Source: Betaproteobacteria bacterium
GTDB lineage: Bacteria; Pseudomonadota; Gammaproteobacteria; Burkholderiales; SG8-39
Length of the DNA stretch: 64,000 nucleotides
Assembly (NCBI GenBank): GCA_016713125.1
Contig: JADJPT010000007.1
Coordinates: forward strand, 29,198-93,197
Direction: 5' to 3'
Part shown: piece after piece, positions 35,305-55,731 of the stretch
How the letters are laid out: the number at the start of each line of letters is the position of its first letter
How positions within the stretch are numbered: position 1 is the stretch's first letter
Made by a program: the position numbers and the translations under genes
The notes under the pieces: generated by a model
Seen by the model: the letters and a program-made list of their open reading frames with translations, nothing else
Told to the model about the DNA's origin: nothing
Database searches by the model: none

Positions 35305-35328
35305 GCGCGGGTTTCCGTCCGGCCGGCT

Positions 35329-36738: not shown

Positions 36739-36776
36739 GGGGGTCTCCGAGGGCTCGCGGTTCTGGCTTGCTGTGC

Positions 36777-37739
36777 TTACTGTTCGATCTTGATGCCGGT
36801 CTGTTTCACGAAGTTACCCCACTTCTGGTTCTCCGCCTGCACGAATGCGCGAAACTGTTCCGGGGTGTCGCCGCCGGGCGCCGCGCCGATGTCGTCCATG
36901 CGCTTCTTCACCGCCGGGTCCTTGAAGCCCTCGCGCACCGCAGCCGCCACGCGGGCGAGGATCTCGGGCGGTGTGCCGGCCGGGGCGAACAGGCCGTTCC
37001 AGGAATCGACCGCGTAGCCGGGGATGCCGGACTCGCCCACGGTGGGCACCTCGGGGGACTGCGGGAAGCGCTTGGCGCTGGTCAGCGCCAGGGGGCGCAG
37101 CCGGCCCGAGCGCATGTGGCCCAGGGCGTCGGAGTAGTTGGCGAAGGTGATCTGCGCGTCGCCGGCGACGGCCGCGGCGGTGGCCGGGGCGCCGCCCTTG
37201 TAGGGCACGTAGACGATGTCGATGCCGGCCATGTGCTTGAAGATCTCGCCGCTGAACTGCGTCAGGCCGCCGACGCCGGCGAAGTTCAGCTTGCCGGGCT
37301 GCGCCTTGGCCAGCGCGATCAGTTCCCTGACGTTCTTGGCGGCCACCGCGGGATGCACCATCACCACCAGCGGGTTGGTGTTGATCAGGGTCACCGGCGC
37401 GAAGTCCTTCACGCCGTCGTAGCCGGTCTTCTGGATGAACTGCAGCAGCGTCTGCGGCGCGGCCGAACCCATCAGCAGGGTGTAGCCGTCCGGCGCGCTC
37501 TTGGCCACGAAATCGGTGGCGATGGCGCCGCCGGCGCCGGGCTTGTTCTCGACCAGCACGGGCTGGCCGAGAGCTTCCTGGATCTTGGGCGCGTTGATGC
37601 GCGTCACGCTGTCGGTGATGCCGCCGGGCGCGTACGGCACGATGATGCGCAGCGGCTTGGCCGGCCAGGCCTGGGCCGCGGCGGTGCCGGCGAAGGCCAG
37701 CGCGAGGAGGGCGGCGGGAAGGCGGTGAAGCAGTTTCAT
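36777..37739 (-). CDS. Bug-family TTT periplasmic binding protein
   Basis: ATG at 37739 (MKLLHRLPAALLALAFAGTAAAQAWPAKPLRIIVPYAPGGITD...). Confidence 0.8.
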   Translation of the reverse strand: MKLLHRLPAALLALAFAGTAAAQAWPAKPLRIIVPYAPGGITDSVTRINAPKIQEALGQPVLVENKPGAGGAIATDFVAKSAPDGYTLLMGSAAPQTLLQFIQKTGYDGVKDFAPVTLINTNPLVVMVHPAVAAKNVRELIALAKAQPGKLNFAGVGGLTQFSGEIFKHMAGIDIVYVPYKGGAPATAAAVAGDAQITFANYSDALGHMRSGRLRPLALTSAKRFPQSPEVPTVGESGIPGYAVDSWNGLFAPAGTPPEILARVAAAVREGFKDPAVKKRMDDIGAAPGGDTPEQFRAFVQAENQKWGNFVKQTGIKIEQ

Positions 37740-37817
37740 GTGCGGGCTCGCAGGGAAAAAAATTAGCTTGTTGACAAAGGTATTTGGCAAAGTCAAAGTA
37801 GCACCAATGGAGGATGC

Positions 37818-38485
37818 ATGACAAGGCCTTTGCCCAGGGTTTCGAAAACCCGCCGCGCCGCGCCCGCAGCACGCACCACGGCGGCGCGCCCCGGCATCGC
37901 GCGCACCATCGGGCGCACTGCGGCGGCGCGCGGCGCCGCGCGCGCGCCGCGCACCGTGTCGCGCGAGGCGCTGCTGGTCAACGGCTCGGACGCCGAGTTC
38001 CGCAACCTGGTGCACGACCTGCTGGCCTTCTCCCACATCCTGGGCGTGTGTCGCGACCGCTTCGGCGCGGTGATCGGCCTGACCGGCATCCAGTACGAGA
38101 TCGTGATGGCCGTGCGCCGCTTCCAGAAGGAGGGCGGCAAGGCCGGCGGCATGAGCGTCGGGCAGGCTGCGGCGCGGCTGCGGCGCTCCGGCGCCTTCAT
38201 CACCATCGAGGCCAACAAGCTGGCCGCCAAGGGCATCCTGGAGAAGTTCGAGGACCCGGCCGACGGCCGCCGGGTGCTGCTGAGGGTGTCGGCCAAGGGC
38301 GTCGAGCTGGTGCGCCAGCTGGCCGTCGTGCAGCAGCAGGTCAACGACGAACTGTTCGCCTGCCTGGATCACAAACGCTTCGAACTTCTGCGCACGCTGG
38401 CTGCCGAACTGGTGGCCTGCGGCGACCGCGCCAGCGCGCGCTGGTCGAGTACCTTTCCCGCGACGCGGAATCGCGCGCCGCCTGA
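37818..38485 (+). pseudogene. MarR-family transcriptional regulator, 3' frameshift as sequenced
   Basis: Winged helix (LTGIQYEIVMAVRRFQ...ITIEANKLAAKGILEKFEDPADGRRVLLRVSAKG). At ~38438 the frame shifts to ...LVEYLSRDAESRAA-TGA (38483-38485). Otherwise the ORF runs on for 861 aa into hpaB. Confidence 0.65.
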
Positions 38486-38527
38486 TCAACGCAGTTTCGG
38501 TTTCGGTTCCTTTTCTGGAGATATCAC

Positions 38528-38920
38528 ATGGCCATGCCCCCAAGCAGCACCTCGAGTTCATCGGCGTAGACATGAAGGAAGGCTGGGCGGTGCCGCCCGG
38601 CTATCCGCCCGGCTTCACGCAGAAGATCCTCGCCCAGGACATCGACGAGGTGAACAAGCGCGGCAGCCGCACCCGCCTGCTCAAGCTCGAGCCGGGCGCG
38701 TTCTCGACCGTGCCCTTCGTGCACGACCACTGGGAGGAGGTGTTCCTGGTGCAGGGCGACCTGATCTTCGGCAACGACGACGAAGGGCAGGGGCGGCCAG
38801 TCCTCGAACGCCTTCACCTACGCCTGCCGCCCGCCCGGCGTGTACCACGGCCCGTTCGCCTCCAAGGGCGGCTGCCTGCTGTACGAAATCCACTACTACG
38901 AAACCTCGGGCAAGAAGTAA
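38528..38920 (+). pseudogene. small cupin protein, two homopolymer frameshifts as sequenced
   Basis: ATG 38528 after GGAGAT. The C5 run at 38537-38541 appears one base short and the G4 run at 38790-38793 one base long. Corrected product: MAMPPKQHLEFIGVDMKEGW...HDHWEEVFLVQGDL...YHGPFASKGGCLLYEIHYYETSGKK. Confidence 0.6.
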
Positions 38921-38930
38921 GGAGAACGCC

Positions 38931-40403
38931 ATGCTGAAAACCGGCAAGGAGCACCTGGAGTCCCTGCGCGACGGGCGCGTGATCTACATCGGCCAGGAGA
39001 AGGTCACCGATGTCACCACGCACCCGGCGTTCCGCAACGCCGCGCAGACCATCGCCGACATGTACGACCTCAAGGCAGCTCCGGAGAACCGCGACGCCTA
39101 CAGCTTCGAGGAGAACGGCGAGCGGTTCATCAGCTACTTCCTGCGCGCGAAGACGCGCGAGGACCTGGTCAAGCGCACCAACCTGCACCGCGCCATCGCC
39201 GGCATGAAGCACGGACTGTGGGGCCGCTCGCCGGACCACGTCTCGGCCTTCGTCACCGGCATGTCGACCAACCCCTCGGTGTTCGGCCAGTACGCGGACA
39301 ACCTGCTCGCCTATTACGAGCACATGAGGAAGAACGACATCTACGCGACCTACGCGGTGATCCCGCCGCAGGCCGCGCGCAACCCGGAGTTCTACACCAA
39401 GGCCAACCTGCCGATCCCCACGCTGCGCGTGGTGCGCGAGGACGACGACGGCCTGGTGATCTCGGGCATGAAGATGCTGGCCACCGGCGCGGTGTTCGCC
39501 AACGAGATCTGGATCGGCAACCTGATCCCGCTGGCGCCCACCCAGCTGGCCGAGTCGATCACCTGCGCCGTGCCGGTGAACGCCAAGGGCCTCACGCTGT
39601 GGTCGAGGAAGCCCTTCGAGCGCGACGCGCAGGTCGAATTCGAGAACCCGCTGGCGCACCGCTTCGACGAGACCGACAGCATGGTCATGTGCCAGGAGGT
39701 CAAGGTGCCCTGGGAGAAGGTGTTCGTGCACAACGACGCCGTGCTGGCGCGCGAGATCTACATCAAGACCCCGGCGCACTGCTACGGCAACCACCAGTCG
39801 AACGTGCGCTTCCACACCAAGATGCAGCTGCTGGTGGGGCTGGCGTCGCGCATCACGCAGGCCTCGGGCGCCGACCAGATCCCGGCGGTCAAGGAGACCA
39901 TCGGCAGGCTGGCCGCGCTGGAGGCCACGCTGGGCGGCATGATCGCCGGGCAGATCCAGGACGCGGAGAACTGGCCGGAGGGCTACTGCACCTACAACCG
40001 GCGCTACATGTACGCGGCGCTCAACTGGTGCACCGAGGGCCACTCGGGAATCATCGACGTGATCCGCGAACTGTGCGGCGGCGGCGTGTTCCAGATGCCG
40101 GCCGACATCTCGGTGATGAACAACCCGGAGATGCGCCAGGAGTTCGAGACCTACTGGCAGACCCCGCAGTTGCAGGCGGTCGAGCGCATGAAGCTGTTCA
40201 AGCTCGCCTGGGACCTGATCGGCTCGGAGTTCGCCGGGCGCCACGCGCAGTACGAGAAGTTCTACGCCGGCGCCTCGTTCATCGTGCGCAACCACAACTA
40301 TCGCGAAGCGCCCTGGGAGCACTATCACCAGATCGTCGACGACCTGATGGCCAGCTACGGCTATCCGGGCCAGGTGGCGGTGCCGAAGAAGGCCGCCGCC
40401 TGA
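38931..40403 (+). CDS. 4-hydroxyphenylacetate 3-monooxygenase-family flavin-dependent oxygenase component (HpaB-like)
   Basis: AAGGAGA RBS. 490 aa. MLKTGKEHLESLRDGRVIYIGQEKVTDVTTHPAFRNAA... and the overall length are typical of HpaB/TC-FDM oxygenases. Confidence 0.75.
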   Translation: MLKTGKEHLESLRDGRVIYIGQEKVTDVTTHPAFRNAAQTIADMYDLKAAPENRDAYSFEENGERFISYFLRAKTREDLVKRTNLHRAIAGMKHGLWGRSPDHVSAFVTGMSTNPSVFGQYADNLLAYYEHMRKNDIYATYAVIPPQAARNPEFYTKANLPIPTLRVVREDDDGLVISGMKMLATGAVFANEIWIGNLIPLAPTQLAESITCAVPVNAKGLTLWSRKPFERDAQVEFENPLAHRFDETDSMVMCQEVKVPWEKVFVHNDAVLAREIYIKTPAHCYGNHQSNVRFHTKMQLLVGLASRITQASGADQIPAVKETIGRLAALEATLGGMIAGQIQDAENWPEGYCTYNRRYMYAALNWCTEGHSGIIDVIRELCGGGVFQMPADISVMNNPEMRQEFETYWQTPQLQAVERMKLFKLAWDLIGSEFAGRHAQYEKFYAGASFIVRNHNYREAPWEHYHQIVDDLMASYGYPGQVAVPKKAAA

Positions 40404-40465
40404 GCGTGGCCGGGCGTGTGCATTCTGCGCGCCCGCGCTTCCCGGCTTTCGCGTAGGATGCGCGC

Positions 40466-40750
40466 ATGAGCGGAGCCCACCCACCACCCTCCGGACCGCC
40501 CCCCGCAGCCCCCGGGGCGACCACCGGCAATGCCTCGATGGCGACGCGCGACGTCGCCGCACGCATCTACATCGAACTGGCCGCCAAGATGCCCTCGCCC
40601 GACAAGGCCGAGAGCCTCGCGCGGCTGGCCTTCAAGCTGGCCGATGTGTTCGCCGCCACCGAGAAGAAGATCAACGTCGAGAACGCCCCCAAGGTGGCTT
40701 CGTTCGACGACAACTTCTTCGACGAACTGGTCGACGGCAAGAAGTCCTAG
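40466..40750 (+). CDS. small hypothetical protein
   Basis: GC3 bias is convincing only from the internal ATG at 40538 (MATRDVAARIYIELAAKMPSPDKAESLARLAFKLADVF...), so the true start may be 40538. Confidence 0.45.
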   Translation: MSGAHPPPSGPPPAAPGATTGNASMATRDVAARIYIELAAKMPSPDKAESLARLAFKLADVFAATEKKINVENAPKVASFDDNFFDELVDGKKS

Positions 40751-40792
40751 CGGCGCGCCGCGCCGCGGCTCACCGCCGACTTCTCAGACTTC

Positions 40793-42034
40793 TCAGAAGC
40801 GTCCGGCGCGGAACGGCGCCAGGTCCACCTGCGGGCTGCGGCCGGCCACCAGGTGGGCGATCTCGCGCCCGGTGCTGGCGCCGCCGCACATGCCCACGTG
40901 TCCGTGGCCGAAAGCCAGCCAGGCGTTGTCGCTGCCCGGCGCGCGGCCGATCACCGGCAGGCTGTCGGGCAGGCAGGGGCGGTGGCCCATCCATTCGGTG
41001 GTGCGGCTGGCGTCCAGGTGCGGGAACAGTTCGCGGCCCTTGGCCAGCAGCACCCCGGCGCGCGCGTAGTTCGGCGCGGCCCTGAGGCCGGCGAATTCCA
41101 CCGAGCCGGCCAGGCGCAGGCCCATGGCCATCGGATTGATCATCAGGTTGTGTTCCAGCGCCATCACGGTGTGGCGCAGTTGCAGGTTGGTGCTCTGCAC
41201 GGTGACGTGGTAGCCGCGCTGGGTCTCCAGCGGGATCGACACGCCCAGTTGCGCGCACAGTTTTGCCGACCAGGCGCCGCCGGCCACCACCACGCCGTCG
41301 CATTCGAGTGTTTCTCCGCTGTCGAGTTCCAGCGCCGCGACGCGCGCGCCCCTGCGCACGAAGCCGGTGACGCCAGCCTTCACCTGCACCGCGCCGTCGC
41401 GCAGGGCCTGGGCGTGGAGGGCCTTGACCAGCCGCGAGGGATCCAGCGTCGAGCCATTGTCCGGGGCCAGCAGCCCGAAGCGGAACCTGCCGCGCAGGTC
41501 GGGTTCGAGTTCGACCAGTTCGTCCTCCTCGACATCGCGCAGATTCACGCCCAGGCTGCGGCGCAGGTCCATGCCCCATTGCCACTGGCGTGCAGACTCG
41601 CGCGAGCCGTACACGTACAGGCAGCCGGTGCGGCGCACCAGGTCCTGAGCCCCGGCGCGCTCGAGCAGCGGGCCGTAGGCCTCGAAGATCGGCGCCAGCA
41701 GGTTGCGCAGGGCGGTGGCGATGCGCACCACCTCGGCGCGTTGCGAATGGCCGACGAAGCGCGCCAGCCAGGGCGCCACCACCGGCAGGTACCACCAGCG
41801 GATGGTCAGCGGGCCGAGCGGATCTAGCAGCCAGGCCGGCGCCTTCTTCCACATGCCGGGCATGCCCACCGGCAGGCAGGCCGAGGGCGAGAGCGAGCCG
41901 GCGTTGCCGAACGAGCAGGCTTCGCCGGGCTCGCGCGGATCGACGAAGCTGATGCGGTGCCCGTCGCGCTGCAGCCAGGCCGCGCTGCACGTTCCGACGA
42001 TGCCGGTGCCGATGACCGCGATGTGCACGCTCAA
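40793..42034 (-). CDS. FAD-dependent oxidoreductase of the D-amino-acid dehydrogenase/oxidase (DadA/PuuB/PauB-like) family
   Basis: TTG at 42034 (or GTG at 42028), overlapping the ferredoxin stop. IAVIGTGIVGTCSAAWL dinucleotide fold. C-terminal AFGHGHVGMCGGASTGREIAHLVAG. Confidence 0.75.
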   Translation of the reverse strand: MSVHIAVIGTGIVGTCSAAWLQRDGHRISFVDPREPGEACSFGNAGSLSPSACLPVGMPGMWKKAPAWLLDPLGPLTIRWWYLPVVAPWLARFVGHSQRAEVVRIATALRNLLAPIFEAYGPLLERAGAQDLVRRTGCLYVYGSRESARQWQWGMDLRRSLGVNLRDVEEDELVELEPDLRGRFRFGLLAPDNGSTLDPSRLVKALHAQALRDGAVQVKAGVTGFVRRGARVAALELDSGETLECDGVVVAGGAWSAKLCAQLGVSIPLETQRGYHVTVQSTNLQLRHTVMALEHNLMINPMAMGLRLAGSVEFAGLRAAPNYARAGVLLAKGRELFPHLDASRTTEWMGHRPCLPDSLPVIGRAPGSDNAWLAFGHGHVGMCGGASTGREIAHLVAGRSPQVDLAPFRAGRF

Positions 42035-42357
42035 CCCACCTGCCGCTCGGGCACCTGCACGACCAGGCCGTCGAGTTCCGCGCCGACCACGATCTGGCAG
42101 GCGAGCCGGCTGTTGGGGCGTTGCTCGGCGGCGACGAAGCCCAGCATGTCGATTTCGTCGTCGTGGGCCGGCGGCATCTTCACGAACCAGGCCGGCTCGA
42201 TGTAGACATGGCAGGTGGCGCAGGACAGGCAGCCGCCGCATTCGGCGTCGATGCCTTTCACGTCGTTGGCGATGGCCGCCTGCATCACGCTGGAACCCGC
42301 CGGGGCGTCGACGGTCCGGCGCTGCCGGTCGGGAAGTACGAATGTCACCTGGGGCAT
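42031..42357 (-). CDS. [2Fe-2S] ferredoxin, adrenodoxin/putidaredoxin type
   Basis: 108 aa. ECGGCLSCATCHVYI...RLACQI cysteine pattern. Confidence 0.85.
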   Translation of the reverse strand: MPQVTFVLPDRQRRTVDAPAGSSVMQAAIANDVKGIDAECGGCLSCATCHVYIEPAWFVKMPPAHDDEIDMLGFVAAEQRPNSRLACQIVVGAELDGLVVQVPERQVG

Positions 42358-42393
42358 CGATGGATCCTGGGAAATGTGAACACTTTGAACCTT

Positions 42394-45300
42394 TCAGGAC
42401 TTGAGCTGGTAACCCTTGTCGCGGAACAGGCGCAGGGGGGCGGTGCGAGGCCATCGACTCGACCACGTCGGCGATCGCCGTGATGCGCGCCTCGAGCAGG
42501 ATCTCCTCGCCTTTCAGCCCGCGCGGGTAGCCGCTGCCGTCCATGCGTTCGTGGTGCTGCAGGGCGATCTGCGCCACCGGCCAGGGGAACTCGACGTCCT
42601 TGAGCACCGCGTAGCCGGCCGCGGCGTGGGATTTGATCAGTTCGTATTCTAGCGGCGTGAGCTTTCCCGGCTTGGCCAGGATCTCGGTCGGGATGGCGGT
42701 CTTGCCCACGTCGTGCAGGTAGCCGCCGACCTTGAGGCCCTCGAGCTTGTGCGCGTCCAGACCCATCTCGGTGCCGATCGCGACGGCGATCTCCGCGACG
42801 CGCTGTTCATGGCCGGCGGTGTACGGGTCACGCATCTCGCTGAGCGTGGTGGCCAGCGCGACCGTCTGCATGAAGGCATTCTCGAGCTGCCTGGTGTAGC
42901 GGCGGATCTGTTCCTCGGCGACTTTCTTGTCGGAGATGTCCTGCAACAGGCCGATGATGCAGGGGGACTGGCGATAGGTGGCGCGCGAGACGTGTATGCC
43001 GACTTCGGTGGTCGAGCCGTCCTTGCGCAGCGCCGTGAACATGAATTCTGCGCGCTGCTGCTTGCCTGCGTTCAGCGATCGCAATGCTTCCTCTGCGCGC
43101 GCGCGGTCCTTTTCGGCGATGAACTGGAACGTCTCGAGGCCGAGCAACTCCTCTCGTCCTCGTAGCCGAGGATCTGCGCCAGGCGCGGGTTGGCATAGGC
43201 GAAACGGCGGTCCTGCGAGATGAAGGCGCCGGCGATCGATTGCCCGATCAGGGCCAGGAAGCGCTGTTCGGACTCCTGCAGCGAGACGAGCGAGGCAGCT
43301 TCGGCGGCTTCGGCGTCGAACTTGTCCAGGGCGTAGCCGATCGCGGTGGTGCGCGGCCACCGGCAGGATCCTGCGGCTGGCGGCGTCCACCAGCCCGATC
43401 CAGGCCAGGTCCATGCCGCCCAGTTCCACCACCACTTCGCAGATGCGCTTGAACAGCGACTGCTCGTCGGCACAGTGCAATACCGCCGCCTGGGCTTCGC
43501 TCAGTGCCGAATACAGCCGGGACACGCGGCGCAGGCGCAGCTCCGCGCGCTTGCGTTCGGTGATCTCGATCGCCACGCCGCGCAGCCGCGTGATGCCGCC
43601 GTCCTCGTCGCGCAGCGCCTCGCCGCGCGTCAGCATCCAGTGCATGCTGCCGTCCGTTCCCCGGAACTCGAGCTCCTCTGCGTAGGGTTCGCCGCTCTCG
43701 CGCGTGCGGGCAATGGCCGCCTCCAGGCGCGCCCAGCTTTCCGCGCCGAACAGGTCTGTCAGTGCCGCGAAGTGCGGGGCGGGCTGCGCCGGATCGAAGC
43801 CGGTCATGCGATACAGCTGCGCCGACCACCGCACCTTGCCGCTGGCCAGGTCCAGGTCCCAGTTGCCGACCTTGGCCAGGCGCTGCGCCTCCTCCAGTTC
43901 GTCGCGGCCGCGCTGCAGATCCTGCTCCAACAGGTTCTCGGCTGGGTGACGTCCGAGTGGGTGCCGATCATGCGCAGGGGTCTGCCTTCAGGGGTCGCGC
44001 TCGACCACCATGCCGCGGTCGCGGATCCACTTGTAGCTGCCGTCCTTGCAGCGCACGCGATGCACGTTGTTGTAGGTGGCGACCTTGCCGTCCAGGTAGT
44101 CCTGCACCTCGGCCAGCGTGGCCGGCAGATCCTCCGGATGCACCAGCCTCTCCCATTCGTCCAGGCTGTTGCCGATCTCGCCTTCGGTGTGGCCGAGCAT
44201 CTGCTTCCAGATGCGCGAGAAAAGCACGGTACTGCGTTCGATATCCCAGTCCCATACGCCCAGGTCCGAGCCTTCGAGCGCGAACTTCCAGCGCAGTTCG
44301 CTTTCCTTCAGCTGCGCCTCGCGGCTGCGGATGTCGGCGGTGAGTCCGGCGGCGATGCGCACGGCGAGTTCGCGCGTGCCGATCAGCGACAGCGCCAGCC
44401 AGCACATCAGCACGCTGATGGCGAAGCCGCCGGCCAGCGTGCGCCAGACCGAGGCATAACTCTGGCTGTCGCCGAGCGAATGGGCGCGGAACTCCAGCCG
44501 CCAGCGTCGGCCGTTGAAATCCAGCCTGCGCATCTCGGTCACTTCGTGCGGATGCGGTGCGGCGCGGGACGCCGCGTCACTGGCGTAGAGCAAAGCCTGC
44601 GGCGAGGCTTGCTCGCCGTCGAAGATATGCAGGTCGAGATCGACGCCCAGCGCGCCCTGCCAGTCGCCGAGAATGCCGCGCATCAGGTCGTTCATGCGGT
44701 AGGGGCTGTAGGTCCAGCCGAGCAGGGCGGCGCGGCGCTGCTCGACAGTCTGCAGCGGCATCTCCTGGCGGTACACCGGCACGTACATCAGCACCCCGGC
44801 CTGCGCCTCGCTGTCGGTTTCCTGCACCAGCCGCACCTTGCCGGAGAGCTGCGCTTGGCCGCTGTCGCGGGCACGCGCCATGGCGTCGCGCCGCACCGGT
44901 TCCGAGTACATGTCGTAGCCGAAGGCGCGCAGGTTGCGATCCTTGAACGGCTCCAGGAAGACGATGGCGGTGTAGGTGTCGCGGGCGCCTGGCGGCCGCA
45001 CCGCGTAGTCCGGGTAGCCTTCGGCGCGCACCTGCGCGATGTGCGCCTGCAGTTCCCCGGGGGCGATCAGCTGCGCGTAGCCGATGCCCTGCACACTGGC
45101 GATCCTGGGCTCCTGCAGCAGGAGGCTGACGTACTGGCGCCAGTCGTCGCGCGTGACTTTCTGCGAACCGGCGAACAGCGCGCGGGCACCGATCAGGCCA
45201 GTTCGTAGCTCTCCAGGCGCTCGCGGACTTGCAGCGCGATGTGGTCGCTGGCATGGGCGTAGCGATCCCGCGTCCTGGTCCAGGCCCTGCTTCACCCACA

Positions 45301-45418
45301 GGGTGAGCATGACGGTCACCGCCAGCCCGGCGCACAGCAGGGCCCAGGCCGGCCAGCGCCGGACCGCCCGGACGGCAGGGCCGTCGGTCGCTGCGCCGTC
45401 GGGGGCGGGATTGCTCAT
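42394..45418 (-). pseudogene. CHASE-TM-PAS-PAS-(short GAF-like)-PAS-HD-GYP signalling protein (~1000 aa), frame broken about seven times as sequenced
   Basis: Pieces appear in ORFs 43988..45418, 40793..43930 and 43072..43473. They join into one protein after single-base corrections near 45265, 45195, 43990, 43945, 43355, 43160 and 42450. HD-GYP motifs HDVGKTAIP and HHERMDGSGYPRGL are present. Confidence 0.65.
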
Positions 45419-45433
45419 GGGCTCAGGGCGTGC

Positions 45434-46882
45434 TCAGAACATCTCGAAGTACTCGCGCTGCTCCCACTCGCTGACCTCGAGGTTGAAGCGTGAGATCTCG
45501 GCGTCCTTGATGCGGCAGAAGTAGTCGACGAAGCCCGGACCCAGGGCCGCGTTCAGGCAGTCGTCGGCGCGCAGCGCCGCCAGCGCCTCGACCAGCGTGG
45601 CGGGCAGGGCCTCGGCCCGGGTCTCGTACGGCGCGTCGGCCGAGGGGCCGGGGTCGAGCTTGCGCGCCACGCCGTCCAGGCCGGCATGGATCTGCGAAGC
45701 GAAGTACAGGTAGGGGTTGGCCGCCGGTTCGCCGGCGCGGTTCTCGATGCGCGTGCCCGGATCGCCGGCGCCGCCCAGCACGCGCAGCATGGCACCGCGG
45801 TTGTCGCGCCCCCACACCGCGCGGTCCGGCGCCAGCGAGTTCGGCCGGTAGCGCTTGTAGCCGTTGATGGTCGGCGTGGACAGGGCGGCGGCGCCGCGCG
45901 CGTGCGCGAGCAGGCCGGCCAGCCAGTGCATGCCCAGCGGCGAGAGCTGCGCGGCGCCCGGCTCTGGGATGAAGGCGTTGCCGCCGTCGGCCAGCCGGCG
46001 CAGCGACTGGTGCAGGTGCCAGCCCGAGGACATCACGTTGGGCAGCTTCGGCCGGCACATGAAGGTGCCGTGGTAGCCGTGGCGGCGCAGGATCTGCTTG
46101 GCCGCGCTCCTGAACAGCACCATGGCGTCGGCCGCCGCGCAGGCGGCGAGCGGGCCGAAGGTGAACTCGAACTGGCTGGGCCCGTACTCGACCTCCAGCG
46201 TGCGCAACGGCAGTTCGAGTTGCTGGATGTGCTTCCTCAGCAGTTCGGCCACCGGCTCGATCAGGTCGTAGCGCAGCTCGGTCAGGTACTGGTAGCCGTG
46301 CGAAAGCAGCTGCACCTCGGGCGGCTCGCCCGGCTGTCCGGCGTCCTGCGGACGCATGTGCGGATCCACCACCTTGAAGACGTGGAACTCGACCTCCAGC
46401 CCGGCCAGGAACTCGTGGCCGGTGTCGGCGAGCTTCGCCGCGGCCGCGCGCAGCAGCGCGCGCGTGGCGAAAGGCACCGGCTTGCCGCTGGAGAAGTACG
46501 CATCGCACAGCACCCAGCCGGTGTTCTGCAGCCAGGGCAGCACGCGGAAGGTGGTGGGGTCGGCGACCATCAGGAAATCGGCCGCGCCCTGCATCTCGTC
46601 CATGTCGAAGCCGCCGCCGCGCGAGAAAACCGGGAAGGCGGTCTTGTGCGAAGTGTCCTTGGCCAGCAGCGTGGTGGTCAGCGTCACCCCCTCGTAGAGG
46701 GCCCTGGCCGCTTCGGCCACGGTAAGCGTCTTGCCGCGCAGGATGCCGTGCTGGTCGGGAAACGAGAAGCGCACCACCTCGATGTCGCGCGTCTGCAGTT
46801 CCTTGACCAGTTGCGCGGCGGCCGCATGCTGGGCGCCGCTCCACAGGCCGTGGCGCTCGACGAAGCGCTGCGCGGCGCTCAT
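45434..46882 (-). CDS. glutamine-synthetase-family gamma-glutamyl-amine ligase-like protein (PuuA/PauA/TdnQ-like)
   Basis: ATG at 46882, overlapping the Rieske gene stop (ATGA). 482 aa. GS catalytic-domain pattern ...LEVEYGPSQFEFTF...MSSGWHLHQSL...NRGAMLRV...RIENRAGEPAANPYL. Confidence 0.75.
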   Translation of the reverse strand: MSAAQRFVERHGLWSGAQHAAAAQLVKELQTRDIEVVRFSFPDQHGILRGKTLTVAEAARALYEGVTLTTTLLAKDTSHKTAFPVFSRGGGFDMDEMQGAADFLMVADPTTFRVLPWLQNTGWVLCDAYFSSGKPVPFATRALLRAAAAKLADTGHEFLAGLEVEFHVFKVVDPHMRPQDAGQPGEPPEVQLLSHGYQYLTELRYDLIEPVAELLRKHIQQLELPLRTLEVEYGPSQFEFTFGPLAACAAADAMVLFRSAAKQILRRHGYHGTFMCRPKLPNVMSSGWHLHQSLRRLADGGNAFIPEPGAAQLSPLGMHWLAGLLAHARGAAALSTPTINGYKRYRPNSLAPDRAVWGRDNRGAMLRVLGGAGDPGTRIENRAGEPAANPYLYFASQIHAGLDGVARKLDPGPSADAPYETRAEALPATLVEALAALRADDCLNAALGPGFVDYFCRIKDAEISRFNLEVSEWEQREYFEMF

Positions 46883-48210
46883 GCCTGCTCCGCGGCCAGG
46901 CGCGCCGCCGCCCAGGGCGACTGCCGCCTGCGCTTGAGGTCGGATTCCTGCCAGTAGTCGTTCCAGCGCCCGGTCGGGCCGATGCCGTCGATCGAGGGCG
47001 GGCCGCTCAGCGCGTCGGCGGCGGCCGCGTCGAGCACCATCAGCGGCCGCGCGCCGGACTGGTTCTTCTCGATGGCCTCGTTCAGCAGGCGGCGGTAGGC
47101 GATGATGCCCTTGTCGGTCGTGCCGAGGTGCTCGCGCGTGCGGTCCTGGATCGCGCCCTGCGACTCGATCGCCCACTGGTCGTGGACGTTGATGTCGTCG
47201 CCCATGCCGGTGTAGGTCTGCGCGCGCTGCTGCAGCGGGTCGTAGCCGTAGCCGTTGGCGCGGTTCATACGCGGCAGGTAGTCGGGCAGCGTATAGAGCT
47301 CCAGGCGCTGCTCGCGCATCTGCGCCTTGTCCACCGGGGCGCCGAAGCTGGTGAAGATCGCGTACCAGTAGCAGCGCGTGTCGTCGACCGGCACGTGCCA
47401 CTGCGAAATGGTCATCTCGGCGCTCATCGGGATGACGAAGGCCTGCGGGAACATCAGATTGGTCACGCGAACGTGCGTGTCGGCCTCGGAGAGCCTGCGC
47501 AGCGCGATCAGGCGCATGCCGTAGTCGGTCTTCTCGACGCTGATCTCCGGACGGTCGAACTCGCGCAGCACGCGCGTGATCGGCATGTCGGAGTCGGCCG
47601 AGGCGCCGCGGAACTGCTTGCCGTAGCTGCCCGAGGTGTCCTCGTCCTCGAAGAAGCGGTGCAGGTAGGAGGCGTGCGCCGGGTCGATGCCGACCTCGAG
47701 CGCCTGCAGCCAGTTGCAATCGAGGAAGCCCTTGAACGCGAAGGTGTAGGCATCGGGGGCCACGAAGCAGTCGAAGGCCGGGAAGGCCGGCGGCTCGCCT
47801 TCGCCGATGTACGCGAACAGCATGCCGCTCTTCTGCACCACCGGATAGGACTTCTGCCTGATGCGCGTGCACAGCTTGCTGCCCTCGGGCTCGGCCGGGG
47901 TCTGCAGGCAATGGCCCTGCGCGTCGAACAGCCAGCCGTGGAAGGGGCAGCGCAGTCCGCCGTCCTCCAGGCGACCGTAGGCGAGGTCTGCGCCGCGGTG
48001 CGGGCAGTCGCGGTCCAGCATGCCGTAGCGGCCGGCCTCGTCGCGGAACAGCACGAAGTCCTGGCCCATCAGGCGCACCGCGCGCACCGGGCGCGGCCCC
48101 TCGAGTTCGTCGAGCAGGGCCACCGGCTGCCAGTAGCGGCGCAGCAGACGGCCGGCGGGCGCGGCCGGGCCGACGCGCGTGATGAGCTCGTTCTGTGCGG
48201 CGGAAATCAT
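46879..48210 (-). CDS. Rieske [2Fe-2S] non-haem-iron oxygenase, alpha-only (phthalate/KshA/LigXa-like) type
   Basis: 443 aa. Rieske CPHRGADL...CPFHGW. Mononuclear iron NWLQALEVGIDPAHASYLH. No adjacent beta subunit. Confidence 0.8.
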   Translation of the reverse strand: MISAAQNELITRVGPAAPAGRLLRRYWQPVALLDELEGPRPVRAVRLMGQDFVLFRDEAGRYGMLDRDCPHRGADLAYGRLEDGGLRCPFHGWLFDAQGHCLQTPAEPEGSKLCTRIRQKSYPVVQKSGMLFAYIGEGEPPAFPAFDCFVAPDAYTFAFKGFLDCNWLQALEVGIDPAHASYLHRFFEDEDTSGSYGKQFRGASADSDMPITRVLREFDRPEISVEKTDYGMRLIALRRLSEADTHVRVTNLMFPQAFVIPMSAEMTISQWHVPVDDTRCYWYAIFTSFGAPVDKAQMREQRLELYTLPDYLPRMNRANGYGYDPLQQRAQTYTGMGDDINVHDQWAIESQGAIQDRTREHLGTTDKGIIAYRRLLNEAIEKNQSGARPLMVLDAAAADALSGPPSIDGIGPTGRWNDYWQESDLKRRRQSPWAAARLAAEQA

Positions 48211-48263
48211 GGAGTGATTCTCCTTCTGCAGACTGTGCGCGAACTGCGATCTTATCGAAGTCG

Positions 48264-48275
48264 ATTGTATACAAT
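48264..48275. promoter_or_regulatory. perfect 12-bp palindrome ATTGTATACAAT in the Rieske/pcaH divergent promoter region
   Basis: Only 94 nt separate the two divergent starts. The GT-N-AC core fits GntR/FadR-type operator architecture. AGGAGG RBS at 48291-48296. Confidence 0.5.
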
Positions 48276-48304
48276 GGCACTCGTAAACTCAGGAGGAAAT
48301 CAAC

Positions 48305-49000
48305 ATGACATCCGCATTGCGCAAGCCCGCTCCCGGCACGCACCCGAACCTGCTGCATCCGGCCTACGCCAGCACCGTGGCGCGCGCGCCCACGCAGTCG
48401 CTGCTCGCCCTGCCGCAGGGTCCGGGAGAGCTGTCCGGGCCGAGGTTCGATGCCAGCGTGCTCTACAAGAGCCACGACGATCTCACCCGGCAATGCGCCG
48501 GCGAACCGCTGGGCGAGCGCATCATCCTTTCGGGCCGCGTGCTCGACGACAACGGCGACCCGATGCCGAACACGCTGCTGGAGGTGTGGCAGTGCAATTC
48601 GGCCGGCCGCTACCACCACCACCGCGACCAGCACGACGCGCCGCTCGACCCGAACTTCACCGGCAACGGCCGCGTGCTGACCGACGCGGAGGGCCGCTAC
48701 ACCATCACCACCATCAAGCCCGGCGCCTACCCGTGGCGCAACCACCCGAACGCCTGGCGACCCGCGCACATCCACTTCTCGCTGTTCGGCACCAGCATGC
48801 TGCAGCGTCTGATCACGCAGATGTATTTCCCCGGCGACCCGCTGCTGGGTTACGACCCGATCTTCAACAGCGTGCCCTCCGAGAAGGCCCGCGAGCGTTC
48901 GATCGCCAGGTTCGACTGGAACCTGACCAAGCCCGAGTGGGCGCTGGGTTACGAGTTCAACTTCGTGCTGCGCGGCTCCGAAGCCACGCCGGCCAACTGA
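48305..49000 (+). CDS. pcaH: protocatechuate 3,4-dioxygenase beta subunit
   Basis: 231 aa. ...LLEVWQCNSAGRYHHHRDQHDAPLDPNFTGNGRVLTD...PGAYPWRNHPNAWRPAHIHFSLFG... Confidence 0.9.
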   Translation: MTSALRKPAPGTHPNLLHPAYASTVARAPTQSLLALPQGPGELSGPRFDASVLYKSHDDLTRQCAGEPLGERIILSGRVLDDNGDPMPNTLLEVWQCNSAGRYHHHRDQHDAPLDPNFTGNGRVLTDAEGRYTITTIKPGAYPWRNHPNAWRPAHIHFSLFGTSMLQRLITQMYFPGDPLLGYDPIFNSVPSEKARERSIARFDWNLTKPEWALGYEFNFVLRGSEATPAN

Positions 49001-49010: not shown

Positions 49011-49490
49011 ATGAGCGAGATCAACACCCCGTCGCAGACGGTCGGACCGTTCTTCCACTACGGACTCAAGTGGGAACCCGGCGAACACCTGTTTCCGGAC
49101 GCCAAGACCCCGGGTCGTCGCATCGTGCTGACCGGCACCATCACCGACGGCCAGGGCGCACCGGTGCCCGATGCCTTCCTGGAACTCTGGCAGCCCGACG
49201 GCAGCGGCAGGTTCGGCGCGCCGGTGCCCGGCTCCTGCGCCGGCTGGGGGCGCGTGTTCACCGACAACGACGGACGCTACACGGCCAACACCGTGCTGCC
49301 CGGCGCGCTGGGCAAGCAGGCGCCGCACATCCTGGTCGTGCTGTTCGCGCGCGGCCTGCTCAGGCAGCTGATCACGCGCGTGTACTTCGACGGCGAGGCG
49401 GCCAACGCGGGCGACGCGGTGCTGGCCTCGACCGGCGCGCGCGCCGCCACGCTGCTGGCCCGGCCGGAGGGCGCCGAGCGTTACGTCTAA
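49011..49490 (+). CDS. pcaG: protocatechuate 3,4-dioxygenase alpha subunit, ended by a premature in-frame TAA
   Basis: TPSQTVGPFFHYGL...FLELWQPDGSGRF... The conserved C-terminus NIVLQGKNETAFFDC-TGA continues in the same frame after the TAA at 49488-49490, to 49538. Confidence 0.8.
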   Translation: MSEINTPSQTVGPFFHYGLKWEPGEHLFPDAKTPGRRIVLTGTITDGQGAPVPDAFLELWQPDGSGRFGAPVPGSCAGWGRVFTDNDGRYTANTVLPGALGKQAPHILVVLFARGLLRQLITRVYFDGEAANAGDAVLASTGARAATLLARPEGAERYV

Positions 49491-49557: not shown

Positions 49558-50904
49558 GTGAGCGGCCTGCACGCCACCTGGTGGGACGCCGAATGCGCGG
49601 CCGCGCTGTCGGATGCCGCGCTGCTCGCGGCCATGCAGCGCTACGAGGGCGCGCTGGCGCTGGCATCCGAACGCGTGGGCCTGATTCCCGCCGGCATGGG
49701 CGCGCAGATCGCGCAGGCCTGTGCCGCCGTGCAGCTCGATGTCGACGACCTGGCGCTGGCGGCGCGCGACAGCGCGGTGCTGACCGTGCCCTTCGTCAAG
49801 CAGCTCACCATGCGCGTGGCGGCGGTTTCGCCCGAGGCCGCGCGCTGGCTGCACTACGGTTCCACCAGCCAGGACGTGATCGACTCGGCGCTGTCGCTGT
49901 GCCTGCGCGAGGCCGGCGGGCGCGTGCTGGCGCTGCTCGAACGCCTGGGCGAGGCGGCGGCCGGGCTGGCTGAAACGCATGCCGGCACGCCGATGGCCGG
50001 ACGTACCCTGCTGCAGGCCGCGGTGCCGATCCCGTTCGGTTTCAAGGCCGCGGTGTGGCTGGGAATGTGCACGCGGTCACGCGCGCAGTTCGCCGGCGTC
50101 CTGCGCGCGGCCTGCGTGCTGCAGGCCGGCGGGCCGGTGGGCACGCTCTCGGCCTACGGTGGGCGCGGTGCGGACCTGGCGCGCGAACTGGGGCGCGAGC
50201 TGGAACTGCCGGTGCCGGCCACCAGCTGGCACGCTGCGCGCGACAGCTATGCGCGGCTGGGCGCGGAGGCGGCCATCCTGGCCGGCGCTGCCGGCAAGAT
50301 CGCGCGCGACGTCGCGCTGATGATGCAGCCGGAAATCGGCGAGGCTTTCGAGCCCGCGGCGGCCGGGCGCGGCGGCTCCTCGGCCATGCCGCACAAGCGC
50401 AATCCGGTGGGCTGTACGCTGGCGCTGGAAGCTGCGCAGCGCGCGCCGGGCCTGGCCGCCAGTCTGCTGGGCGGCATGGATTCGGAGCACGAACGCGGCC
50501 TGGGCCAGTGGCAGGGGCAGATGTTCGTGCTTCGCGACCTACTCGCCTCCTGCGCCAACGGCGTGGCGGCGATGGCCGAGGTGCTCGAGGGCCTGCGCGT
50601 GGAGCCGCAGGCCATGCGCGCGAACATCGACCGGCTGGGCGGCCTGGCGTTCTCCGAGGCGGTGGCCGTGGCGCTGGCGGCGAAGCTGGGCAAGGCCGAG
50701 GCGCACGCGCTGACCGAGGCGCTGTGCGCGCGCGCGGTGCGCGAGGGCATCACTTTGGAGCAGGCACTGCGCGGCGAAGCGCGCGCGCTCGACGCGCTGG
50801 GCGCCGACGCCGTGGCCGGCCTGTTCGATCCGGCCGGCTGCTTCGGCGCCGCGGCGACGATGATCGCCGCGGCCGTGCGCGACTGGCGCGCCGCGGCCGG
50901 CTGA
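49558..50904 (+). CDS. pcaB: 3-carboxy-cis,cis-muconate cycloisomerase
   Basis: 448 aa. Fumarate-lyase superfamily (YGSTSQDVIDSA, GSSAMPHKRNP). It follows pcaHG. Confidence 0.8.
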   Translation: MSGLHATWWDAECAAALSDAALLAAMQRYEGALALASERVGLIPAGMGAQIAQACAAVQLDVDDLALAARDSAVLTVPFVKQLTMRVAAVSPEAARWLHYGSTSQDVIDSALSLCLREAGGRVLALLERLGEAAAGLAETHAGTPMAGRTLLQAAVPIPFGFKAAVWLGMCTRSRAQFAGVLRAACVLQAGGPVGTLSAYGGRGADLARELGRELELPVPATSWHAARDSYARLGAEAAILAGAAGKIARDVALMMQPEIGEAFEPAAAGRGGSSAMPHKRNPVGCTLALEAAQRAPGLAASLLGGMDSEHERGLGQWQGQMFVLRDLLASCANGVAAMAEVLEGLRVEPQAMRANIDRLGGLAFSEAVAVALAAKLGKAEAHALTEALCARAVREGITLEQALRGEARALDALGADAVAGLFDPAGCFGAAATMIAAAVRDWRAAAG

Positions 50905-51030: not shown

Positions 51031-52237
51031 ATGAACGACGAATCCAAATTTGACCGCCGCCTGTTTCTGAAAGCCGGCGCCGCCGCAGCCGGCGTCGCGG
51101 GCTTTCCGTATATCGCGCGTGCGCAGGGCGCCAAGATCAAGGTCGGCGTGATGTTGCTCCACACGGACCTTCGCGCCGCTGGGCGTGGCGATCGAGAACG
51201 GCTTCCGCCTCGCGCTGCAGGAGGCCGGCGGCAAGTTCGCCGGCCGCGACATCGAGTTCATCAAGGTGGACGACGAATCCGACCCGCCCAAGGCCGTCGA
51301 CAACATCAACAAGCTGGTGACCCGCGACAAGGTCGACATGGTGCTGGGCACGGTGCACTCGGGCGTGGCCGCCGGCATGGTGCGCGTGACGCGCGAGTCG
51401 GGCACGCTGCACATCATTCCGAACGCGGGCTTCGCACCGGGCGCCGGCGCCCTGTGCGCGCCGAACATCTTCCGCACCTCGTTCTCCAACTGGCAGTCGG
51501 GCTATGCGATGGGCGAAGTGATGGCCAAGCGTCCGAAGGTGAACAAGGTGGTGACCCTGGCCTGGCGTTACGCCGCCGGCGAGGAATCGGTCAAGGGCTT
51601 CAAGGACGCTTTCCTCAAGGCCCAGGGCAAGAGCATCGTCAAGGAACTGTGGATCCCGTTCCCGAACATCGAGTTCCAGGCGCTGCTCACCGAGATCGCC
51701 TCGATCAAGCCGGATGCGGTGTACTCGTTCTTCGCCGGCGCCGGTGCGGCCAAGTACATCAAGGACTACGCGGCCACCGGCCTGATGAAGACCACCCCGC
51801 TGATGGGTTCGGGCTTCCTCACCGACGGCCTGCTCGAGGCGCTGGGCGGCGTGGGCGAGGGCATCGAAACCGCGCTGCACTACGGCGACGGCATCGAGAC
51901 GCCCAAGAACAAGGCGTTCCGCCTGGCCTATGCCAAGGCGTTCAAGCTGCAGCCGGACGGTTACGCGGTGGCCGGCTACGATTCCGGCAACCTGTTCCGT
52001 GCCGGCCTCGAGGCGGTCAAGGGCGACATCAGCAAGAAGAAGGAAATGATCAAGGCGATGGAAGCGGCCAAGCTGGACAGCCCGCGCGGCCCGCTGCGCC
52101 TGAATCGTGCGCACAACCCGATCCATGACCATTACCTGCGTCGCGTGACCGGCAACGAGAACAAGGTGGTCGGCGTGGCCGTCAAGGGGCTGGACGACGA
52201 CCCCATGGCGACCGCAGCCTGCAAGATGCCCGGCTGA
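51031..52237 (+). pseudogene. Liv-type ABC transporter periplasmic substrate-binding protein (Tat-like signal), one frameshift as sequenced
   Basis: MNDESKFDRRLFLKAGAAAAGVAGFPYIARAQGAKIKVGVML in frame 1. ...FAPLGVAIENGFRLALQEAGGKFAGRDIEFIKVDDE... to 52237 in frame 2. The break is within 51155-51175. Confidence 0.75.
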
Positions 52238-52288
52238 GCGGGGAGGCGCTGGCGGGGCCGTTCGCGGGCCCGCTTATTGCATCATGGT

Positions 52289-52320
52289 CTCCGGCGGCCG
52301 CGTGCCGCCGGAGTTGTTTC
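52289..52320 (+). terminator. intra-operon hairpin/attenuator after the binding-protein gene
   Basis: CTCCGGCGG-CCGCGTG-CCGCCGGAG followed by TTGTTTC. Confidence 0.45.
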
Positions 52321-52338
52321 TGAAACCCGAACCCGCGC

Positions 52339-53235
52339 ATGGATTTCCACTTCTTCCTGATTCAGTTGATGAACGGCGTGCAGTACGGACTGCTGCTGTT
52401 CCTGCTGTCGGCCGGCCTCACGCTGGTGTTCGGCATCATGGGCATCATCAACATCGCCCACGGCAGCTTCTACATGATCGGCGCCTACCTGGCCTGGTCG
52501 CTGACCGGCAAGCTGGGCAGTTTCTGGCTCGCGCTGCCCGCGGGCATCGTGCTGACCGTGGCCCTGGGCATGCTGCTCGAGTGGCTGGTGATCAAACGCC
52601 TGTACCACCGCGACCTGCTCTACCAGGTGCTGGCCACCTACGGACTGATCCTGGTGTGCGAGGAGCTGCGCAGCGTGCTGTGGGGCGACGACGTGCGCGG
52701 CTTCAACATCCCGGAGGCGCTGAACCAGTCGATCCAGCTCTCCGAGACCCTTTCCTATCCGGTGTACCGGCTGTGGATTTCCGGTGTGTGCCTGGCCGTG
52801 GCCGTGCTGCTGTACTGGGTGATCCAGCACACCCGCCTGGGCATGAAGATCCGCGCCGGCGCCTCCAACCGCGAGATGGTGCAGTCGCTGGGCATCGACA
52901 TCCAGATCGTCTATCGCATCGTGTTCGCCGCCGGCGTCACGCTTGCCGCGCTGGCGGGCATGATCGCCGCGCCGGTGTCCTCGGTGTTCCCCGGCATGGG
53001 CAACCATGTGCTGATCATCTGTTTCGTGGTGGTGGTGATCGGCGGCCTGGGCTCGGTCAAGGGCGCACTGGTGGCCTCGGTGATGATCGGCCTGGTGGAT
53101 ACCTTCGGCAAGGTGCTGGAGTTCAGCGTCGGCGGGGTGCGCCTGCTGCCCGAGCTCTCGAGCATGACGGTGTACGTGCTGATGGCGGTGATCCTGCTGT
53201 GGAGGCCCGAGGGCCTGTTCGGGAAGAAGCTGTGA
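52339..53235 (+). CDS. branched-chain-amino-acid-type ABC transporter permease (LivH-like)
   Basis: 298 aa, polytopic. ...NIAHGSFYMIGAY... motif. Confidence 0.85.
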   Translation: MDFHFFLIQLMNGVQYGLLLFLLSAGLTLVFGIMGIINIAHGSFYMIGAYLAWSLTGKLGSFWLALPAGIVLTVALGMLLEWLVIKRLYHRDLLYQVLATYGLILVCEELRSVLWGDDVRGFNIPEALNQSIQLSETLSYPVYRLWISGVCLAVAVLLYWVIQHTRLGMKIRAGASNREMVQSLGIDIQIVYRIVFAAGVTLAALAGMIAAPVSSVFPGMGNHVLIICFVVVVIGGLGSVKGALVASVMIGLVDTFGKVLEFSVGGVRLLPELSSMTVYVLMAVILLWRPEGLFGKKL

Positions 53236-55703: not shown

Positions 55704-55731
55704 GGGCGCGGTGTCCGGCGCATCCGCCGCG

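Follow-up and report, generated by a model that had tools for sequence, protein, structure and literature searches.

We analyzed a stretch of 64,000 nucleotides (nt) from a Betaproteobacteria bacterium (contig JADJPT010000007.1, positions 29,198 to 93,197 of the forward strand; hereafter, the window), which has a G+C content of ∼70%. Its minus strand carries, at 40793–48210, a cluster for an alpha-only Rieske oxygenase, a glutamine synthetase (GS)-like ligase, a [2Fe-2S] ferredoxin, and a DadA-like flavin adenine dinucleotide (FAD) oxidoreductase, divergent from the protocatechuate genes pcaHGB. This cluster appears to be a member of the already described, very widespread sad-type arylamine system rather than a new one. 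It probably encodes a deaminating arylamine dioxygenase that would convert an aromatic amine, most likely 4-aminobenzoate, into protocatechuate, beside the genes that cleave the ring of that product. An initial annotation, made from the sequence of the window, had proposed a gamma-glutamylation-dependent Rieske route that probably leads from an amino-aromatic acid to protocatechuate. Our analysis supports this reading best, with a ligase of the NpaA1/AtdA1 type and a ligase–oxygenase pair kept together in nearly all of the genomes compared. We encountered neither a gene string without conservation, nor a GS of the polyamine type, nor a Rieske enzyme acting as an independent O-demethylase. The statements below on which genes are present, on their family relationships and synteny, and on the operator describe what was observed.

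A Predicted Arylamine Ligase Is Paired with a Rieske Oxygenase

The ligase is 43% identical to NpaA1 (8WWU; 424 bits by BLASTP and 440 bits by phmmer), compared with 27% identity (102 bits by BLASTP) to Escherichia coli GlnA and 26% (94 bits by BLASTP) to E. coli PuuA. All other solved structures of GS or methylamine ligase (GmaS) score at most 179 bits, and the protein falls below the cut-offs of every NCBIfam GS and PuuA equivalog. Its Gln-synt_C domain is complete (model positions 4–344 of 344). The amine-binding E-x-E motif is kept, the NpaA1 sequence IEDEW aligning with LEVEY in the window; E232 and E234 of NpaA1 are taken as the amine-binding Glu pair, for which we inferred the numbering offset between alignment and paper. 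NpaA1 gamma-glutamylates 1-naphthylamine and anilines and is 90% identical to the gamma-glutamylanilide synthase AtdA1 (PMC11335346). By these comparisons, the window ligase is predicted to be of the arylamine type, nearer to the AtdA1/TdnQ/NpaA1 group than to GlnA, PuuA, or GmaS, and it would perform the ATP-dependent gamma-glutamylation of an aromatic amine.

The closest solved relatives of the Rieske protein are the phthalate dioxygenases 7FJL and 7FHR (218 bits, ∼35% identity over 390 residues), and its Pfam matches include LigXa_C and VanA_C. We mapped the residues of PDO_KF1 (PMC8649396) onto 210 orthologs of the window protein. The Rieske Cys/His ligands, the bridging Asp (D176), and the iron-binding H179 and H184 are invariant, and so are R238 and R248, which correspond to the carboxylate-binding Arg231 and Arg244 of PDO_KF1 (PMC8649396). 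The equivalent of PDO Arg207 varies (K, R, or Q). The phthalate-specific residues Ser179, Ser182, and Phe280 are replaced in the window family by Pro, Ala, and Ala, respectively, and Phe278 is replaced by Trp. The invariant arginines and these replacements together fit an enzyme whose pocket is larger and would accept an anionic aromatic substrate. We considered a phthalate 4,5-dioxygenase and rejected this identity: the ligands and the Arg231/Arg244 equivalents are kept, but Ser179, Ser182, and Phe280 are replaced and the Arg207 position is variable, so that only the fold family is shared. PDO_KF1 (7FJL), which has the metal ligands, bridging Asp, and Arg231/Arg244 equivalents in common with the window oxygenase, also differs from it in using a PDR-type reductase with flavin mononucleotide and a [2Fe-2S] cluster, whereas the window enzyme has a GS-like ligase as its constant partner. 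The window oxygenase would dihydroxylate a gamma-glutamylated arylamine at the nitrogen-bearing carbon and its neighbor.

This coupling was followed in a scan with one genome per species. At least 597 genomes encode a relative of the Rieske protein, and the best 80 of them, 68–77% identical and belonging to Alpha- and Betaproteobacteria, were examined for synteny. Of these 80 genomes, 77 have a GS-like ortholog (55–73% identical) directly beside the Rieske gene; two of the three exceptions are contig ends. Such conservation is far above chance expectation. The common operon in Burkholderiales consists of a divergent GntR gene followed by genes for the Rieske oxygenase, the GS-like ligase, a ferredoxin, a Pyr_redox ferredoxin reductase, an ATP-binding cassette (ABC) transporter, and a class I glutamine amidotransferase, as seen in Polaromonas JS666, Azoarcus, Comamonas, Xylophilus, and Azohydromonas. 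Many Variovorax loci are without the ferredoxin reductase. The ferredoxin gene stands right after the GS-like gene in ∼25 Burkholderiales loci and in locus L083, the nearest relative of the cluster on a long contig. Divergent genes for IclR-family regulators are found in 27 alphaproteobacterial loci, and Paraburkholderia and Caballeronia carry orthologs as well (L013, L027, and H3–H9). The five-gene string that the initial annotation put forward is not conserved as a whole; what is conserved are parts of it, namely the Rieske–GS pair and, in the nearest relatives (e.g., L083), a contiguous run of the Rieske, GS-like, ferredoxin, and DadA-like genes.

Plasmid records matching the Rieske protein separate into distinct identity tiers: 15 at 66–76%, two at 50%, and all others at ≤38.5%, the last being ordinary phthalate-family paralogs. 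In Bradyrhizobium and relatives (L038–L078), genes resembling those of the box benzoyl-CoA pathway lie ∼2–9 kb upstream of the Rieske gene; they encode a regulator joining a helix-turn-helix to a shikimate kinase domain, an AMP-binding ligase, and a protein of the enoyl-CoA hydratase family (∼560 aa).

The ferredoxin scores 108–114 bits against putidaredoxin and 4LTU. Its gene is in the operon, as in sad-type systems, and is displaced here from the ligase gene by an inserted sensor gene. In the 64-kb window, tblastn found no GntR regulator, Pyr_redox ferredoxin reductase, class I amidotransferase, or glutaminase, and no oxygenase small-subunit domain is present among the open reading frames (ORFs) annotated in and around the cluster. 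These results agree with the absence of an amidotransferase, a beta subunit, and a reductase, which had been offered as what sets this cluster apart. Orthologous operons elsewhere do carry the reductase and the class I amidotransferase.

Relation to Known Arylamine Systems

The combination of an alpha-only Rieske oxygenase, a GS-like protein, and a ferredoxin is that of the sad system of Hydrogenophaga intermedia PBC, and the claim of a new hybrid finds no support. In work by Gan from 2012, this system is said to comprise just these components with an unlinked reductase, and deletion of sadB reportedly abolished activity. Its gene order of alpha-only Rieske oxygenase, GS-like protein, and [2Fe-2S] ferredoxin, with the reductase outside the cluster, is also that of the window. 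The sad operon, with sadA for the oxygenase, sadB for the GS-like protein, and a ferredoxin gene, converts 4-aminobenzenesulfonate into 4-sulfocatechol (PMC5632844). The system acts, as we propose for the window, on a para-substituted anionic aniline and forms a product that is cleaved by a protocatechuate-type 3,4-dioxygenase (PMC5632844). The operon is kept across Hydrogenophaga strains, and a natural analogue of sulfanilate was proposed by the authors as the true substrate (PMC5632844). The window differs from sad in having standard pcaHGB neighbors in place of the 4-sulfocatechol set, a sensor gene between ligase and ferredoxin, and a DadA-like gene after the ferredoxin. The features that the initial annotation had regarded as distinguishing are either properties of the sad system or artifacts of lumping neighboring modules and an inserted gene together.

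A second point of comparison is plasmid pSA3 of Novosphingobium resinovorum SA1, which carries a Rieske/GS pair 68% and 60% identical to that of the window, with a ferredoxin–reductase pair and a glutaminase gene nearby. Strain SA1 is a sulfanilate degrader. On pSA3 (L081, 16541–19501 and 726–1556), the glutaminase gene is next to the ferredoxin–reductase pair, and a second folP gene (dihydropteroate synthase) is located a few kilobases away. Recycling of the glutamine released by the dioxygenase would fit the glutaminase, and the second folP might give tolerance to sulfanilate as an analogue of 4-aminobenzoate.

The aniline systems work by a related principle, in which ATP-dependent gamma-glutamylation is followed by conversion of the anilide to catechol by a dioxygenase, and an enzyme resembling glutamine amidotransferases (GATs) hydrolyzes excess anilide (PMC4539516). 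In AtdA1–A5, TdnQTA1A2B, and NpaA1–A5, as in the window, gamma-glutamylation by a GS-like enzyme precedes a Rieske dioxygenase (PMC4539516, PMC11335346). In contrast to the window, these systems have large and small oxygenase subunits of a different Rieske family, and their operons include a GAT-like hydrolase and a reductase. The window has an alpha-only oxygenase of the phthalate family and no GAT-like gene, although the orthologous operons of Polaromonas JS666 and others do have one. Assignment to the Atd/Tdn type of aniline dioxygenase operon was rejected, as no small-subunit domain was found among the ORFs annotated in or around the cluster and no class I amidotransferase or Pyr_redox reductase in the window.

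A Control Region Shared with pcaHGB

The pcaHGB genes diverge from the Rieske operon across 94 nt in the window and are likewise divergent in its closest relative (the P0125 contig, with an 89% identical ligase). In L083, an ABC transporter is directly divergent from the Rieske, GS-like, ferredoxin, and DadA-like genes, whereas in the window and the P0125 contig, the transporter and the Rieske gene are separated by pcaHGB. In this arrangement, pcaHGB and the transporter share a single 94-nt control region with the arylamine operon. The window transporter is 80–85% identical to that of L083, with frame changes at ∼51165, 54387, and 55900. A pcaHG pair also lies within 10 kb of the Rieske–GS pair in L025, L033, and L071 (Afipia and two other loci).

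The perfect 12-bp palindrome ATTGTATACAAT that the initial annotation had noted in the 94-nt region is indeed there; it was read directly from the sequence and was not listed by our inverted-repeat scan. Across genomes, a conserved palindromic operator, ATTGYATRCAAT, often in duplicate, precedes the Rieske start by 40–60 nt (L082, L002, L004, L010, L013, L026, and L034). Of 28 loci with a GntR-family neighbor, 27 have the motif TG[CT]AT[GA]CA, usually ATTGCATGCAAT, upstream of the Rieske gene, compared with 1 of 56 loci that lack this neighbor (background rate, 0.009 per 200 nt); this single case is the window. The control region of the window holds one copy of the operator, and no GntR-family regulator gene is present within the 64 kb. 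A scan of 40600–48400 for sigma-70 promoters and terminators gave nothing above shuffled expectation. The operator region that the two operons have in common appears to couple the arylamine operon to pcaHGB in the window.

The DadA-Like Flavoprotein Belongs to a Recurrent Module

The gene after the ferredoxin gene, hereafter DAO after its Pfam family, had been described as encoding a DadA/PuuB/PauB-like oxidoreductase. The likeness to DadA holds (25% identity and 117 bits with the E. coli protein; 197 bits against the DadA subfamily model NF001933, below its cut-off of 383) but that to PuuB does not (E = 0.12). DAO stands at the position where other operons have the gene for a Pyr_redox ferredoxin reductase. 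We discarded homology between DAO and the reductases that follow the ferredoxin elsewhere (JS666 and SA1), because the latter are of the Pyr_redox type.

A metagenome scan centered on DAO yielded 54 orthologs at ≥65% identity. The gene for a TctC binding protein is downstream of DAO in all 41 assessable loci, and a caprolactamase-like HyuA/HyuB pair lies between the two in 23 of 33 loci; a LysR-family gene is divergent from DAO in 16 of 39 loci, and a Rieske/GS ortholog shares the locus in 16 of 54. HyuA and HyuB resemble caprolactamase and other ATP-dependent lactamases, with scores far below cut-off. The full module, with LysR divergent from DAO–HyuA–HyuB–TctC, is found within L099–L137 (e.g., L100, 10001–15816; L130, 7249–15214). 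In L083, a TctC gene stands between DAO and a convergent MarR operon, a position from which it is missing in the window.

About one third of the copies of the DAO–HyuAB–TctC module lie next to the Rieske–GS pair or are fused with it, in at least four arrangements: Rieske–GS–ferredoxin–DAO–TctC, Rieske–GS–DAO–HyuA–HyuB–TctC, DAO divergent from the Rieske gene at a distance of ∼30 nt, and DAO downstream of a GntR-family gene. Because this linkage arose repeatedly and independently, it indicates a real functional tie between DAO and the Rieske–GS pair. The constant partner of DAO is TctC rather than the ferredoxin, and we therefore treat DAO as the first gene of a separate accessory DAO–(HyuAB)–TctC module, which at our best guess deals with a by-product of the glutamyl cycle, either an amino acid or a lactam. 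The notion that the cluster follows a Puu/Pau logic is not supported: the flavoenzyme is related to PuuB by fold only and belongs to this module. We regard it as highly improbable that DAO makes up a so far undescribed branch integral to the gamma-glutamyl arylamine pathway, oxidizing glutamine or a gamma-glutamyl by-product and, in the lineages where it follows the ferredoxin gene, feeding these electrons through the ferredoxin to the Rieske oxygenase in place of an NADH-ferredoxin reductase.

Proposed Pathway and Alternatives

With the chemistry carried over from homologous systems and the substrate and product from genomic context, the pathway would run as follows. An anionic aromatic amine, most likely 4-aminobenzoate, would enter through the candidate Leu/Ile/Val-type ABC transporter downstream of pcaHGB. 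The ligase would use ATP to link the gamma-carboxyl group of L-glutamate to the aromatic amino group, giving gamma-glutamyl-4-carboxyanilide. The putidaredoxin-type ferredoxin would then reduce the Rieske oxygenase, which would place both atoms of O2 on the nitrogen-bearing carbon and its neighbor (C3/C4), and the resulting carbinolamide would collapse to protocatechuate and L-glutamine. PcaHG and PcaB would open the ring and process the product. 4-Aminobenzoate is the para-carboxy analogue of sulfanilate, and a C3/C4 dioxygenation in which the glutamyl amide is lost would lead to protocatechuate. In Paraburkholderia terrae KU-15, a GS-like ligase and a multicomponent oxygenase are said to convert 4-aminobenzoate to protocatechuate by way of gamma-glutamyl-4-carboxyanilide, which would match the chemistry of our scheme; our literature search for a described 4-aminobenzoate/gamma-glutamyl route returned nothing relevant.

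Several observations weigh against this pathway. The ferredoxin reductase, the regulator, and the amidotransferase are not encoded in the 64-kb window, the transporter genes are frameshifted in the window sequence, and pcaB scores slightly under its NCBIfam equivalog cut-off. The recurrent DadA-like partner is not accounted for by the simple scheme. A pcaHG pair is near the Rieske–GS pair in few lineages (∼5 of 85 loci). The putative orthology to the Hydrogenophaga SadA and SadB (WP_009515254.1 and WP_009515256.1) is drawn from gene order, composition, and the ortholog on the SA1 plasmid, and no Hydrogenophaga-named entry appeared in the top 120 matches of our protein searches, one of which was seeded with the Polaromonas ortholog. 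H. intermedia, moreover, keeps the sad operon and yet is a 4-aminobenzoate auxotroph (PMC5632844), which is awkward for 4-aminobenzoate as the universal natural substrate.

One alternative is that the same system serves another physiological amine, such as 4-aminobenzenesulfonate, aniline, an aminophenol, an aminophenylacetate, or an indole degradation product of the anthranilate or isatinate type, and that the proximity of pcaHGB is accidental. Experiments have described a single substrate for the family, 4-aminobenzenesulfonate (PMC5632844), and both the rarity of nearby pcaHG and the variable Arg207 position of the oxygenase would agree with a different amine. The two carboxylate-binding arginines, however, are invariant, the shared operator region ties the operon to pcaHGB in the window, and none of the 4-sulfocatechol genes (type II pcaH2G2, sulfomuconolactone hydrolase, and maleylacetate reductase) is among the genes annotated around the cluster. 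The presence of the Rieske relatives in at least 597 species, mostly bacteria of soil and rhizosphere, argues for a natural substrate. We consider another amine unlikely. Far less credit is due to the idea that the genes are neighbors without a shared function, the Rieske enzyme acting, for example, as an O-demethylase or phthalate-type dioxygenase independently of the ligase. Its LigXa_C and VanA_C matches would suit such a role, but the juxtaposition of the two genes in 77 of 80 alpha- and betaproteobacterial genomes, their 4-nt overlap in the window, and the reported loss of activity on sadB deletion make it highly implausible.

The remaining alternatives assign DAO a central role. In one, the flavoprotein would replace the ferredoxin reductase, oxidizing an amino acid (e.g., the released glutamine) and passing electrons through the ferredoxin to the Rieske oxygenase independently of NAD(P)H. 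DAO indeed has the exact position of the Pyr_redox reductase elsewhere, with its start overlapping the ferredoxin stop; the ferredoxin and DAO genes remained neighbors when the operon was split by insertion on two independent occasions (in the P0125 contig and in the window); and a Pyr_redox reductase gene is found in 0 of 16 DAO loci with Rieske/GS, compared with 19 of 76 loci that lack DAO. Yet the DAO family is without an NAD(P)H site, and we know of no ferredoxin-reducing member of this type. The invariant partner of DAO is TctC, and just 5 of the 16 linked loci contain a ferredoxin gene. Many arrangements, such as Rieske–GS–DAO–HyuAB–TctC or DAO divergent from the Rieske gene, have no ferredoxin at all, L119 carries both a reductase and DAO at a distance, and the reductase of the PBC system is reportedly unlinked. 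This role for DAO is accordingly doubtful in the extreme, though less so than a pathway of the Puu/Pau kind acting on an aliphatic amine or polyamine, in which the ligase would glutamylate the amine and DAO would oxidize the adduct. The resemblance to that pathway is at the level of the GS-like and DAO domain families, together with a partial score of 225 bits against the gamma-glutamylputrescine synthetase model NF045547, far below its cut-off of 650. Against it stand the scores of the ligase with PuuA and NpaA1 (94 and 424 bits) and of DAO with PuuB, the lack of a PuuD-type hydrolase in the window (class I amidotransferase query) and of a PuuC-type aldehyde dehydrogenase among the genes annotated around the cluster, and the Rieske oxygenase as obligate partner of the ligase. 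We give the polyamine pathway next to no weight.

Gene Layout, Sensor Insertion, and Neighboring Genes

Pfam and NCBIfam scans confirmed the coordinates and domains of the five minus-strand ORFs (Table 1). The Rieske and GS-like genes overlap by 4 nt (ATGA), and the sensor starts at 45418, after a 15-nt gap, as first described. The DAO start had been placed at a TTG codon overlapping the ferredoxin stop, which is tenable, with an alternative GTG start two codons downstream.

Table 1. Features of the arylamine cluster and the adjoining pca and transporter genes
Feature	Coordinates	Strand	Evidence
DadA-like FAD oxidoreductase (DAO)	40793–42034	minus	Pfam DAO, 184 bits
Putidaredoxin-type [2Fe-2S] ferredoxin, predicted electron carrier to the Rieske oxygenase	42031–42357	minus	Pfam Fer2
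CHASE-PAS-(GAF)-PAS-HD-GYP sensor gene, frameshifted	42394–45418	minus	Pfam/NCBIfam domains
SadB/AtdA1-type GS-like ligase	45434–46882	minus	Pfam Gln-synt_C, 266 bits
SadA-type alpha-only Rieske oxygenase, phthalate-dioxygenase family	46879–48210	minus	Pfam Rieske and LigXa_C
Predicted operator palindrome ATTGTATACAAT	48264–48275		Shared pcaH/Rieske intergenic region
pcaH, protocatechuate 3,4-dioxygenase	48305–49000	plus	TIGR02422, 321 bits (cut-off 296)
pcaG, protocatechuate 3,4-dioxygenase	49011–49490	plus	TIGR02423, 145 bits (cut-off 126)
pcaB, 3-carboxymuconate cycloisomerase	49558–50904	plus	329 bits (cut-off 356)
Leu/Ile/Val-type ABC transporter: binding protein, two permeases, three ATPase genes	51031–56390	plus	Pfam Peripla_BP_6, BPD_transp_2, ABC_tran

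The large sensor has the CHASE, PAS, and HD-GYP domains attributed to it, but it is not a single intact ORF. Between 45330 and 42394, profiling of G+C at third codon positions and three-frame translation showed that the frame changes, or that sequence has been lost internally, at least four times (at ∼45300, 44000, 43400–43130, and 42450); the reading frame ends at 42394. The sensor is absent from the junction between the GS-like and ferredoxin genes in L083 and in all 80 genome loci; in L165, a 97% identical strain, it is in the same place, with its N terminus in frame. In the closest relative (P0125 contig, locus 11458–15874), four unrelated genes, for TctC, ROK, epimerase, and TauD proteins, are inserted at the same junction, which has thus been hit by insertion at least twice independently. 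Confined to the strain lineage of the window, the sensor is a lineage-specific passenger insertion that stands outside the pathway and is no member of the string in which it had been counted.

Relative to orthologs of 80–85% identity, the reading frame also changes in the cupin gene (38536–38917), the transporter binding protein (51031–52237), and two ATPase genes (54229–54982 and 55732–56390), in addition to the sensor (42394–45418), whereas the genes for the Rieske protein, the ligase, the ferredoxin, and the DAO flavoprotein are intact. We did not retain the sensor frameshifts as evidence of a pseudogene: because frameshifts strike the neighboring genes as well, indel errors in the assembly of this metagenome-assembled genome are at least as likely a cause as pseudogenization. 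An apparent 300-nt deletion in L164 was likewise dropped as a sign of gene decay, since its 100-nt unaligned blocks look like scaffold gaps.

Further genes flank the cluster. An operon for a MarR regulator, a cupin, an HpaB-like flavin monooxygenase, and a small protein of no family (94 aa) converges on DAO from the plus strand (37956–40750). L083 and the P0125 contig have this set beside the cluster too, and L085 and L087 likewise carry an HpaB homologue. Beyond it, on the minus strand (33772–37766), is a string of genes for TctC, a CMP/dCMP-deaminase-like protein, a UbiD-family decarboxylase, and a second TctC, which may be another aromatic-acid module; the UbiD and TctC neighbors are kept in L083.

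Implications

The window cluster does not overturn current understanding. A practical by-product of the comparison is the recurrent DAO–(HyuAB)–TctC partner module, which is worth testing, and ATTGYATRCAAT provides a well-defined putative operator motif for the GntR-family regulator of the system. The sad-type pair, found in one scan in at least 597 species genomes, is among the more widespread aromatic-amine modules of soil Alpha- and Betaproteobacteria, and it has so far been studied only as a xenobiotic (sulfanilate) system. 4-Aminobenzoate is both a precursor and a breakdown product of folate. The divergent coupling of the operon to pcaHGB is among the clearest contextual arguments that the system would serve a natural catabolism of 4-aminobenzoate to protocatechuate.

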